Assembly (NCBI GenBank): GCA_030599585.1
Contig: JAUVNS010000003.1
Span: 1-64,000 of the forward strand
Source of the DNA: Promethearchaeota archaeon
GTDB lineage: Archaea; Asgardarchaeota; Lokiarchaeia; Sigyniarchaeales; SOKP01
Direction of reading: 5' to 3'
Length of the DNA stretch: 64,000 bases
The translations under genes and the position numbers were made by a program. Under the pieces are notes generated by a model. It was not told the DNA's origin, searched no databases, and saw nothing but the letters and a program-made list of their open reading frames with translations. Below, in pieces: positions 16,352 through 39,644 of the stretch (positions are counted from its first letter, which is position 1; the number at the start of each line of letters is the position of its first letter).

Positions 16352-16633
16352 ATGAAATATCCTCGTACAATTAATCGCTATTGCCCAACTTGTAGAATTC
16401 ATACTAAGCACAGTGTTTCGCTTTATAAGAAAGGAAAAGAACGGGCTCTCAATCACGGGCGTAGGAGACTGGAGAGAAAGAAGAGGGGATACGGGAGCTT
16501 CCCCAAAGAAATATTTCACCAGAACGCTAAAGTAAATAAACGGTCATTACCCGTATTAGAATGCCCAAAATGTAAAAAAAAACAGTATTCTAAATCTTAT
16601 AGAGTTAAAAAGTTCGAACTTCAAGAAGTCTAA
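16352..16633 (+). CDS. rpl44e: 50S ribosomal protein L44e (eL42)
   Basis: MKYPRTINRYCPTCRIHTKH, GYGSFPK, LECPKC. Confidence 0.95.
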   Translation: MKYPRTINRYCPTCRIHTKHSVSLYKKGKERALNHGRRRLERKKRGYGSFPKEIFHQNAKVNKRSLPVLECPKCKKKQYSKSYRVKKFELQEV

Positions 16634-16645
16634 AGGTGTTATATT

Positions 16646-16852
16646 ATACCAAAAAAAAAAGCAAATAAAGAATTAATCCCTCAACCCCAAAGTAGGTTTT
16701 TAAGAGTGAAATGCTTAAATTGTGGAAACCAACAAATAATTTTCGGTTGTTCCGCTACGGATGTAGAATGTTTAGTATGTGGAAAGACTCTGCTTCAATC
16801 TACTGGCGGTAAAGCGCGAATTTTAACCAAAATTTTAGAAGTTCTTTCTTAA
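16646..16852 (+). CDS. rps27e: 30S ribosomal protein S27e (eS27), apparent ATA start; missed by ORF track
   Basis: Manual translation (I)[67 protein letters not shown]; AGGTG SD at 16634-16638; canonical position after rpl44e. Confidence 0.93.
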
Positions 16853-29490: not shown

Positions 29491-29594
29491 AAATCTTTTA
29501 ATTTCTCTATTTAATTATTATTAATTAAAATAATTAAATTTTTTCATAATTTTTCATAAAATAAATTATGAAGAACAGGTTTTAGGCGATTACT

Positions 29595-37509: not shown

Positions 37510-37640
37510 ATCCCTACTTTTTATTTATAATAGTAATAAAAATAAACTATGTTAGATTAAAAAATCTATAGACCTATCGTCTATAAATTAAGTTTAACTT
37601 CATCTTTAATTAATCTTCAAATTTTGGTGTCTAAATTATA

Positions 37641-39644
37641 ATATCTAATTTCAAAATTGAATCTAGTTTCAAACCTAGCGGAGATCAACCAGAAGCAATC
37701 AAGAAACTCGCCGAAAACATAAAAAACGGAAAAGTCTTTCAAACTCTTTTAGGTGCGACAGGTACGGGTAAAACATTTTCTATAGCACAAGTCATACAAA
37801 GAATCCAAAAACCTACATTAGTAATGGCACCTAACAAAACATTAGCAGCACAATTATATAACGAACTTAAAGATTTATTTCCTAAGAATGCGGTTCATTA
37901 CTTTGTTAGCTACTACGATTATTATCAGCCTGAAAGCTATATGCCTGTGTCAGGTTTATATATTGAGAAAGATTTCAGTGTGAACGAGGAAATCGAGAGA
38001 TTAAGGCTAGCTGCTACTCATGCAATTAGAACGAGGAACGATGTTATCATTGTTGCAACTGTATCATGTATTTATGGTATTGGTGATCCAAAAATTTGGA
38101 CCGCAATTTCCCTAAATCTTGATGTTGGACAAACTATTCAAAGGAAGGAAATAATTAAAAGGTTAATACTGATGAACTATGAAAGAAAGGATATCGAGTT
38201 TAAACCAGGAATAGTTAGAGTTAAAGGAGATATCGTCGATATCTTTCCCGCGTATTTGAACAATGCAATTCGCGTTTCATTATTTGGAGATGTAATCGAG
38301 TCTATACAAGAAATACATTATGTTTCTAATAATGTTTTAAAAGATTTATCAAATTGTAGGATATTCCCAGCTACTCATTTTATAATACCAGAAGAAAATA
38401 AAGCTAAAGCATTAATTTCAATTGAAGAAGAGTTAGAACAACAAGTAGCCAAATTCATGAAAGAAAAGAAATATGCTGAGGCACAACGTATTGAAAAAAG
38501 ATCAAAATTTGATCTTGAAATGATGAGAGAAATGGGTTGGTGTAAGGGAGTGGAAAATTATTCTAGACACCTAGATGGCAGACCACCCGGTAGTCCACCG
38601 ATGTGTTTAATTGATTATTTTCCAAAAGATTTCTTGATAGTTGCTGACGAGAGTCATATAACGATACCTCAAATTCATGGAATGATTGGGGGGGATAGGT
38701 CAAGAAAAAGGAATCTCATTGAGTTTGGGTGGAGATTACCATCCGCATACGATAATAGGCCTTTGACTTTTGAAGAATGGGAAGCGAAAATAAATAACAT
38801 AATTTTTATGAGCGCTACTCCCGGAGCTTGGGAACTTAAAAAGAGCGGTGGAGTATCTGCTGAACAAATAATTAGACCGACTGGCTTGGTTGATCCCCAT
38901 GTGGAAATTCGTCCTGCTAAAAATCAAATTGATGACTTGTTAGATGAGATAAGGAAAGTCATAAGCAGTAAAGGAAGAGTTTTAGTCACCACTCTTACTA
39001 AAAGGATGTCGGAAGATATTGCTGAGTATTATTCTGAAATAGGTTTAAAGGTTGCTTACCTACATTCAGAAGTAGGAACCGTTGAACGATTTGAAATATT
39101 AAGACGTTTAAGAAATGGTACTCACGATGTATTAGTGGGAATTAATCTTCTTAGAGAGGGATTAGATCTACCCGAAGTTAAATTAGTAGCAATTTTAGAC
39201 GCAGATAAAATGGGTTTTTTACGCGACACGCGATCGCTTATACAAACCATTGGTAGGGCTTCTCGTAACTTAGAAGGTAGAGCGATATTATATGCCGATA
39301 AGACAACTCGAGCTATGAAAGAAGCAATTGAAGAAACAGATAGAAGAAGAAAAAAACAAATAGATTACAACGAGAAATTTAAAATTACACCTCAAACAAT
39401 TAAGAAAAATATCTTAAATTCGCTTTCTGAGGAACATGAGTTCAAAGAAAGAGAAACAAAGAAATTGAAAAGAAAAGTTAAAGATAAAATTAAAGATTTA
39501 GAAAAAGAGGTAGATAAAACTTTGGTAATTGAATACCTTGAAAATAAAATGTTTCTTGCAGCTAAAGAGCTACGGTTTGAGGATGCTGCCTATTTACGAG
39601 ATAAAATTAAGGAAATTAAGAAAGATTATAAAATAAAAGTGTGA
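37641..39644 (+). CDS. uvrB: Excinuclease ABC subunit B; true start about 61 codons upstream of the ORF-track start, at ATA 37638 or 37641
   Basis: In-frame upstream extension ISNFKIESSFKPSGDQPEAI...QTLLGATGTGKTF contains Walker A; FVSYYDYYQPE, DESH, GINLLREGLD, UVR domain. Confidence 0.95.
   Translation: MSNFKIESSFKPSGDQPEAIKKLAENIKNGKVFQTLLGATGTGKTFSIAQVIQRIQKPTLVMAPNKTLAAQLYNELKDLFPKNAVHYFVSYYDYYQPESYMPVSGLYIEKDFSVNEEIERLRLAATHAIRTRNDVIIVATVSCIYGIGDPKIWTAISLNLDVGQTIQRKEIIKRLILMNYERKDIEFKPGIVRVKGDIVDIFPAYLNNAIRVSLFGDVIESIQEIHYVSNNVLKDLSNCRIFPATHFIIPEENKAKALISIEEELEQQVAKFMKEKKYAEAQRIEKRSKFDLEMMREMGWCKGVENYSRHLDGRPPGSPPMCLIDYFPKDFLIVADESHITIPQIHGMIGGDRSRKRNLIEFGWRLPSAYDNRPLTFEEWEAKINNIIFMSATPGAWELKKSGGVSAEQIIRPTGLVDPHVEIRPAKNQIDDLLDEIRKVISSKGRVLVTTLTKRMSEDIAEYYSEIGLKVAYLHSEVGTVERFEILRRLRNGTHDVLVGINLLREGLDLPEVKLVAILDADKMGFLRDTRSLIQTIGRASRNLEGRAILYADKTTRAMKEAIEETDRRRKKQIDYNEKFKITPQTIKKNILNSLSEEHEFKERETKKLKRKVKDKIKDLEKEVDKTLVIEYLENKMFLAAKELRFEDAAYLRDKIKEIKKDYKIKV

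Follow-up and report, generated by a model that had tools for sequence, protein, structure and literature searches.

A single locus in the genome of a lokiarchaeial archaeon raises the question of where the ribosome begins to read the gene for ribosomal protein eS27 (rps27e). The window, which is the whole stretch of DNA that was analysed, comprises positions 1–64,000 of the forward strand of contig JAUVNS010000003.1 (GCA_030599585.1). The genome under study, G000, is a metagenome-assembled genome (MAG) of 4.85 Mb in 52 contigs, with 32.6% GC, 8.9% estimated contamination and a completeness score of 100%. In the window, rpl44e (eL42/L44e; 16352–16633, plus strand) starts at ATG, ends at TAA (16631–16633), matches PF00935 (E 2.9e-23) and forms the first gene of a conserved rpl44e-rps27e pair. 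The eS27 frame is open from 16634, directly behind this stop, and reads AGG TGT TAT ATT ATA CCA AAA AAA AAA GCA AAT AAA GAA TTA ATC CCT CAA CCC CAA AGT AGG TTT TTA AGA GTG AAA TGC. A Shine-Dalgarno (SD) motif, AGGTG (16634–16638, plus strand), is complementary to CACCU at the 3´ end of the 16S rRNA (GGATCACCTCCT) and is followed by the 7-nt spacer TTATATT (16639–16645), which varies between species and contains a non-conserved ATT at 16643. The next codon, ATA (16646–16648), opens a coding sequence of 68 codons plus TAA (16646–16852, plus strand; stop at 16850–16852). We infer that this ATA is the initiation codon of eS27, with a probability of about 0.83, from its homology to the ATG of orthologues, its recurrence in independent assemblies and the enrichment of such codons at starts across the genome.

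The first canonical start-type codon of the eS27 frame is a GTG at 16706–16708; no ATG, GTG or TTG occurs between 16634 and this position. The GTG encodes Val21, counted from ATA 16646, within the conserved RFLRVKC motif. The Pfam profile PF01667 (Ribosomal_S27e) matches residues 14–67 with 75.1 bits (cut-off 24.5; E 3.5e-21; profile positions 1–54 of 55), and the domain begins at 16685. Seven domain residues and an LIPQPQ stretch common to relatives thus precede the GTG, and a start there would cut off conserved residues of the domain. The GTG is replaced by GTA or GTT in close relatives and is therefore not conserved as a start codon. The claim of the earlier note that eS27 has no usable canonical start is borne out in this respect. 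The zinc-ribbon core (16712–16780), with C23-x2-C26 and C42-x2-C45, lies within the PF01667 match. The assignment to the eS27 family rests on this profile match over the cut-off, the C4 zinc ribbon, the single copy in the genome (one match in a protein search of G000) and the position directly downstream of rpl44e; the order L44e then S27e was found in every locus compared. An ORF list restricted to canonical starts yields just a 48-aa stump of the protein. The exact 68-aa protein is recorded at NCBI, and the 48-aa short form is recorded at ENA. The lack of a canonical start alone proves little, because at 32.6% GC a run of 24 codons without one is expected by chance in about 1 of 3 cases, as estimated from base composition. 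At the level of sequence, the case draws its weight from the conservation of the codons that precede GTG 16706 and from the alignment of ATA with the ATG of the orthologues.

This alignment was obtained from a protein search of 40 related genomes, which found eS27 in 36 of them in addition to G000; 30 loci were retrieved and read codon by codon. ATA 16646 aligns exactly with the ATG of 25 related genomes, of which 18 are congeners: ATT ATA CCA AAA AAA in G000 corresponds to ATC ATG CCC AAG AAG or AAT ATG CCC AGA AAA in the relatives. The codons behind the start position encode P/T-K-K-K in all loci, and with ATA read as Met the product would have the MPKKK N-terminus that the earlier note had proposed and that the relatives share. 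The same ATA is found in five species-level genomes of the genus (G000, G002, G004, G010 and G011). Differences between these species are almost all synonymous. Compared with G000, the counts of synonymous and non-synonymous codon differences are 9/0 in G004, 8/0 in G002, 6/2 in G010 and 26/5 in G011, which indicates that the eS27 frame is translated. Within codons 2–20, the corresponding counts are 3/0 in G004, 1/0 in G002 and 2/0 in two MAGs; judged from these substitutions, the segment between ATA 16646 and GTG 16706 is itself under purifying selection.

The SD motif follows the start codon among these genomes. AGGTGT-N6-ATA is present in all five ATA-bearing genomes and in three further NCBI MAGs. 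In contrast, the full AGGTG was found upstream of eS27 in none of the 18 ATG-bearing congeners, which carry AGTTGT, GTGAT, AAGG or nothing recognisable instead. The restriction of the full motif to ATA-bearing genomes, among the genus members compared, suggests that SD pairing matters for a weak codon. The six nucleotides between AGGTGT and ATA read TAT ATT, TTT ATT, CAT ATT, ATT ATT, TTT CTC or TAT CTT, depending on the genome.

Codons of the type ATA, ATT or ATC (hereafter ATH) were examined at gene starts throughout G000 with a test set of 3524 stop-to-stop ORFs of at least 150 codons, of which the first 12 codons were considered. Trinucleotides located 5–9 nt after GGTG were counted when in frame with the long ORF and, as a control, when out of frame. 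This design of fixed gaps and a frame control replaced looser scans. Scanning for 4-mer SD matches within the first 40 codons of long ORFs left too much noise, with a share of no more than 12% for ATG itself and a background of 5–6%, and counts after SD 5-mers at any position were dominated by GGT-G codons within genes. The canonical codons separate clearly between in-frame and out-of-frame positions (ATG 94/1, TTG 45/5, GTG 20/1). All three ATH codons are enriched in frame as well: ATC 12/4 (OR 5.6, p 0.002), ATA 37/22 (OR 3.2, p 2e-5) and ATT 50/43 (OR 2.2, p 2e-4), ATT being the commonest of them behind GGTG genome-wide. None of the other non-canonical codons at this distance is significantly enriched, and the AT-rich controls AAT, TAT and TTT are depleted. 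The gap profile is also shared, with ATA and ATT peaking at gaps of 6–8 nt alongside ATG, TTG and GTG. The canonical codons peak within 5–9 nt of GGTG, a range that includes the 7-nt gap between GGTG and ATA 16646.

With a strict definition of the SD motif, 114 long ORFs carry an SD-preceded ATH codon upstream of the first canonical start, and in 239 long ORFs the first canonical start is itself preceded by an SD motif. SD-preceded ATH codons number 126, compared with about 68 expected from other codons, and this excess is a lower bound because the background is inflated by codons adjoining true ATH starts. By these counts, roughly 60–114 of the 3524 long ORFs would start at ATH, which corresponds to a few per cent of genes and to roughly one fifth of SD-led starts. 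The systematic use of non-canonical starts in the lineage, which the earlier note had suggested from a handful of genes, is thus recovered at the scale of the genome. Ahead of first canonical starts, ACG is the codon with the largest fraction of occurrences behind an SD motif (10/187) and may be a further near-cognate start, the numbers being small.

Ten ATH candidates were sampled for protein domains, and in nine of them a Pfam domain starts (at profile position 1–3) upstream of the first canonical codon. These nine are UvrB (37635/37638), a Ras-family GTPase, an FAD oxidoreductase, HisC, an aldehyde:ferredoxin oxidoreductase, a DeoC-type aldolase, a Gfo/Idh/MocA enzyme, a 3-hydroxyacyl-CoA dehydrogenase and CobO. 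In the remaining candidate, a second class I/II aminotransferase, the first canonical codon precedes the domain, so that this case has no bearing on the question. In uvrB (37635–39641, plus strand), which the earlier note had listed among the non-canonical starts, a TAA is followed by ATT 37635 and ATA 37638 behind GGTG. Its first canonical start comes 63 codons later, downstream of the beginning of the helicase N-terminal match at residue 13, in agreement with that listing. A methyltransferase-like ORF at 29589 (plus strand), the METTL5 gene of the earlier note, has an ATT 8 nt after AGGT as the second codon past the stop, and its first canonical codon lies seven codons beyond this ATT.

Two further ribosomal protein genes show the same replacement at a conserved Met position. 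The uS4 gene (contig C24:248684, minus strand; locus L034) has ATC behind AAGGTGA and reads TGA TTA GAA ATC GGA GAT CCA, compared with ATG GGA GAT CCA (MGDPRR) in other families. Among congeners, this position is ATC in 10, ATA in 2 and ATG in 7; the two ATA-bearing congeners have an alternative candidate start in a GTG that lies four codons upstream, within the SD motif. The eS19 gene (contig C40:65879, minus strand; locus L033, also L121–L123) has ATT at the Met position (ATT AGC ATA TAT compared with ATG TCC ATA TAT in most congeners), and this ATT is common to eight congeners. In another family, eS19 is likewise devoid of a canonical start in three genomes, which have ATT or ATA there; one of these, G032, is a complete single-contig genome.

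The gene for initiation factor aIF1 (SUI1), the proofreading protein that rejects non-cognate starts, located outside the window on contig C3 (C3:26021; locus L032/L035), belongs to the same group. Its ATT follows AAAGGTTGTGA, and no ATG, GTG or TTG occurs ahead of the zinc knuckle in G000. The start region, AAAGGTTG TGA AAA AAG AGT ATT AAA GAC, has an identical arrangement in 17 of the 17 congeners retrieved. Outside the genus, two genomes from a different family have ATA at this codon, and others have TTG, GTG or ATG. Of the 29 genomes of the order that were read, 26 have ATT, ATA, TTG or GTG as the aIF1 start and three have ATG.

The distribution of the start codons was mapped onto a tree of 16 proteins from four loci (2174 columns). 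G000, G002, G004 and G010 form one clade, and G011 groups with the ATG-bearing G013, G014 and G024. Monophyly of the five ATA genomes is rejected by the AU test (p 4e-5), the group having been defined after the states were known. The minimum number of changes in start state on this tree is two for eS27, four for eS19 and two for uS4. As reconstructed from these sequences, ATG and ATH have interchanged repeatedly within the genus, and ATH persists through speciation. Such repeated interchange and persistence fit a working start codon rather than a lesion.

Several other explanations of the eS27 locus have to be set against initiation at ATA 16646. The source is a MAG with estimated contamination, and assembled contigs rather than raw reads were compared, which leaves room for an assembly or sequencing error or for a decaying pseudogene. 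The contig of the source run is identical to the window at the eS27 start. An independent cold-seep metagenome DNA contig (depth 29.5, covering 16598–16776) keeps ATA and the run of ten A residues behind it, with one synonymous difference. An RNA-library contig from a related strain has ATC at 16646–16648, which is likewise an ATH codon. In GCA_054384435.1, GCA_054383015.1 and GCA_054384815.1, the recorded eS27 gene begins at ATA behind AGGTGT by NCBI's own call. Eight independent assemblies and the cold-seep contig therefore agree, and the presence of the same ATA in five species-level genomes, three NCBI MAGs and an independent metagenome excludes an assembly error of this codon. A pseudogene would have to be the sole eS27 copy of the genome and still accumulate almost purely synonymous differences. 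The multiple assemblies effectively refute this explanation, the probability of which is negligible. Initiation could also occur at ATT 16643, one codon upstream, to give M-I-P-K-K-K; the earlier note had left the choice between AUA and AUU open. ATT is the commonest ATH codon behind GGTG and occupies 16643 in four of the five ATA-bearing genomes. However, G011 has CTC and one NCBI MAG has CTT at this position, whereas ATA is kept in all, so that ATA is the conserved candidate. Moreover, ATT 16643 lies just 4 nt after GGTG, a gap at which ATG occurs in 3 cases compared with 17–23 at each of the gaps of 5–9 nt, and the starts of the orthologues align with the ATA position. Of the two codons, AUA is thus retained and AUU is very unlikely. 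A different view accepts the ATA start and holds that it is driven mainly by ribosomes that terminate at the rpl44e TAA and restart with a looser choice of codon, rather than by SD-guided binding de novo. The stop and the ATA are only 12 nt apart, the two genes are adjacent in all relatives, and contigs from RNA libraries cross the rpl44e-eS27 junction, showing that the region is present in these libraries. The occurrence of the full AGGTG in every ATA-bearing genome and in none of the 18 ATG-bearing congeners argues against restart as the main driver, as do the many ATH-start genes of the genome without a closely preceding gene end, and we consider it highly improbable in that role. The reinitiation and SD routes are compatible with each other.

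The remaining explanation concerns a detail beside those of the earlier note. A GTG lies inside the SD motif (16636–16638) in the -1 frame, and the AAA codons of the KKK stretch form an A10 homopolymer (16651–16660), a possible slippage site; the loss of one A would place this GTG in the eS27 frame. Translation would then start at GTG 16636, two bases past the rpl44e stop, by termination-reinitiation, with one A of A10 lost through polymerase slippage or skipped by a +1 shift, and the product would begin MLYYTKKKANKE. In the DNA as it is, this frame ends at a TAA after 10 codons. Each of the five ATA-bearing genomes has this GTG, with its -1 frame uninterrupted as far as the A run. In addition, a metatranscriptome contig (run X17, record 4; 131 nt, depth 4.5) has A9 at the 16651 run, one A fewer, which would bring the GTG into frame. 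The three other differences of this contig are all synonymous and have the same bases as G002, whose DNA has A10; at 16640, the contig and G002 disagree. A further two RNA contigs of run X17 stop within the A run, which a DNA contig spans, and this is a weak hint toward slippage. Reverse transcription and PCR errors are common at A10 tracts. The A9 could reflect transcript slippage, such an error or a strain difference, and it was seen at a depth of 4.5. The explanation needs two unusual events, while a single G-to-A change of the ancestral ATG is enough to produce the ATA. The residue behind GTG 16636 varies between L, F, S and Y, and G011 differs throughout, so the upstream frame shows no conservation of its protein sequence, and the spacer resembles non-coding DNA in its variation. 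The A run consists of the KKK codons, and these lysine codons occur in ATG-bearing orthologues too. The position of AGGTG, 7 nt ahead of ATA, is as expected of an SD motif, and uS4, eS19, aIF1, uvrB and others reach the ATH state without a homopolymer. Transcriptional slippage at poly(A) tracts is known to rescue reading frames (PMC5009743). The eS27 locus shares with such systems the A10 between an out-of-frame GTG and the main frame, and the single A9 RNA contig, and it differs from them in having no conserved upstream frame, in keeping the ancestral ATG position as ATA and in the company of ATH-start genes without a run. Slippage onto GTG 16636 is therefore unlikely, and initiation at ATA 16646 is the preferred reading.

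The initiator tRNA and aIF1, to which the earlier note had pointed as components worth inspecting, bear on how an AUA could be read. The sole initiator tRNA found (C3:55175–55309, minus strand) is canonical: it has A1:U72, three G-C pairs closing the anticodon stem and the anticodon CAT. It contains a 49-nt intron at 37/38, and it was located by pattern and spliced by hand. Aragorn found 17 tRNAs without introns and gave doubtful calls with introns, and the Rfam tRNA model gave 27 matches and missed the initiator. Standard tRNA finders thus recover just 17–27 tRNAs, although the genome is scored 100% complete. Many tRNA genes (on C3, C4, C8, C24, C28 and C40) bear introns, some of them more than one, and an elongator-type tRNA(CAT) at C8:35969–36106 appears to carry two. 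An altered initiator anticodon is ruled out as the cause of ATH starts by the CAT anticodon. Reassignment of ATA to Met is likewise ruled out: ATT and ATC also act as candidate starts, and ATA is a frequent codon that stands opposite Ile codons in alignments of gene interiors. For instance, a conserved Ile position of eS19 has ATA aligned with ATT, and the genome contains a candidate tRNA-Ile(UAU) gene with an intron. Stop readthrough to an L44e-eS27 fusion is ruled out as well, given that rpl44e and rps27e are in the same frame in G000 and in different frames in G011 and that their products belong to different ribosomal subunits.

In the mechanism that we propose, the rpl44e-rps27e mRNA would bind the small subunit through pairing of AGGUG (16634–16638) with the 3´ end of the 16S rRNA; the AGGTG motif is present as the earlier note had stated. 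This pairing would put the P site 7 nt downstream, on AUA. Met-tRNAi (CAU) would pair with the first two bases of AUA, the mismatch at the third position being tolerated, and a loosened check by aIF1 would let the AUA pass. The product would begin Met-Pro-Lys-Lys-Lys, as in relatives, and ribosomes ending rpl44e 12 nt upstream may contribute through coupling. In dozens of genes of the genus, among them uS4, eS19 and aIF1, a strong SD motif would make AUA, AUU or AUC (AUH) acceptable as a start. AUA is a poor initiator in well-studied systems, which sits awkwardly with a stoichiometric ribosomal protein such as eS27.

The start of aIF1 itself suggests how stringency could have become low. Since aIF1 appears to be translated from AUU throughout the genus, a loop in which the factor tunes its own synthesis is plausible. 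We tentatively extend this to a scheme that is possible, with the odds somewhat against it: start stringency would be low genus-wide, and less so order-wide, and would be set by feedback, as aIF1 is made from an AUU or AUA start, a low level of aIF1 lets AUH starts fire, and more aIF1 results. At the level of stringency so reached, AUA, AUU and AUC would function sufficiently well after a strong SD motif for changes from ATG to ATH to reach fixation, ribosomal protein genes included, with occasional reversion.

Starts of this kind have precedents. In E. coli, infC (IF3) and pcnB use AUU starts, and NCBI table 11 lists ATT, ATC and ATA as initiators. The arrangement described here resembles these genes in having a near-cognate AUH behind an SD motif, probably read by the normal initiator tRNA. 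It also resembles bacterial infC in that the gene of a fidelity factor uses such a codon (here aIF1, with ATT in 17 of 17 congeners). Unlike in E. coli, where the few cases are regulatory, the candidates here include the stoichiometric eS27, uS4 and eS19 and extend to about 60–114 of 3524 long ORFs, and the machinery is archaeal (aIF1, aIF1A and aIF2) instead of involving IF3. In animal mitochondria, AUA and AUU begin core genes, as they appear to do here; there, however, AUA is reassigned to Met throughout, whereas ATA is an ordinary, abundant Ile codon in G000. AUH starts behind an SD motif are thus already known, and what is new is their lineage-wide use, including in aIF1 and ribosomal proteins. 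Assignment of eS27 to this class as a new member is well supported by the comparisons described above.

Within the same archaeal class, a rare ATT start has been proposed for the tubulin gene AtubA in a MAG of the Kariarchaeaceae (Lokiarchaeia) (PMC13394414; Sci Adv 2026). As in eS27, the deposited protein was too short and an upstream ATT lay at a plausible distance from a ribosome-binding site; unlike the present case, that proposal concerns one gene, whose start is called rare in the methods; neither ribosomal proteins nor ATA starts enter into it, and it includes no comparison between genomes or test across a whole genome (PMC13394414). This single ATT start was the only mention retrieved in a literature search, which found no paper on frequent or systematic ATH starts in Asgard archaea. 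In eukaryotes, eIF1 is autoregulated through a poor start context, and near-cognate initiation occurs at CUG, ACG and AUU (Ivanov et al., 2010, as cited in PMC6237735). The orthologue aIF1 resembles eIF1 in having a weak start in most of the order, and start stringency may be self-tuned here as well. Unlike in eukaryotes, which depend on cap scanning and Kozak context, the start here would be positioned by the SD motif.

Gene finders limited to ATG, GTG and TTG shorten or miss such genes, as illustrated by the 48-aa stump of eS27 at ENA, compared with the NCBI call from ATA. Shortened calls distort Asgard protein families, structure predictions and marker-gene sets. Few archaea are as closely related to eukaryotes as the Lokiarchaeia, and the choice of the start codon is a central difference between the domains. 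If a few per cent of genes begin at AUA, AUU or AUC, as the sequence evidence suggests, archaeal initiation can run far below the stringency implied by the ATG/GTG/TTG rule. The feedback of aIF1 on its own start, if true, would be an archaeal counterpart, and possibly a forerunner, of the autoregulation of eukaryotic eIF1, and the lineage offers a natural system in which to study self-regulation of the aIF1/eIF1 type.
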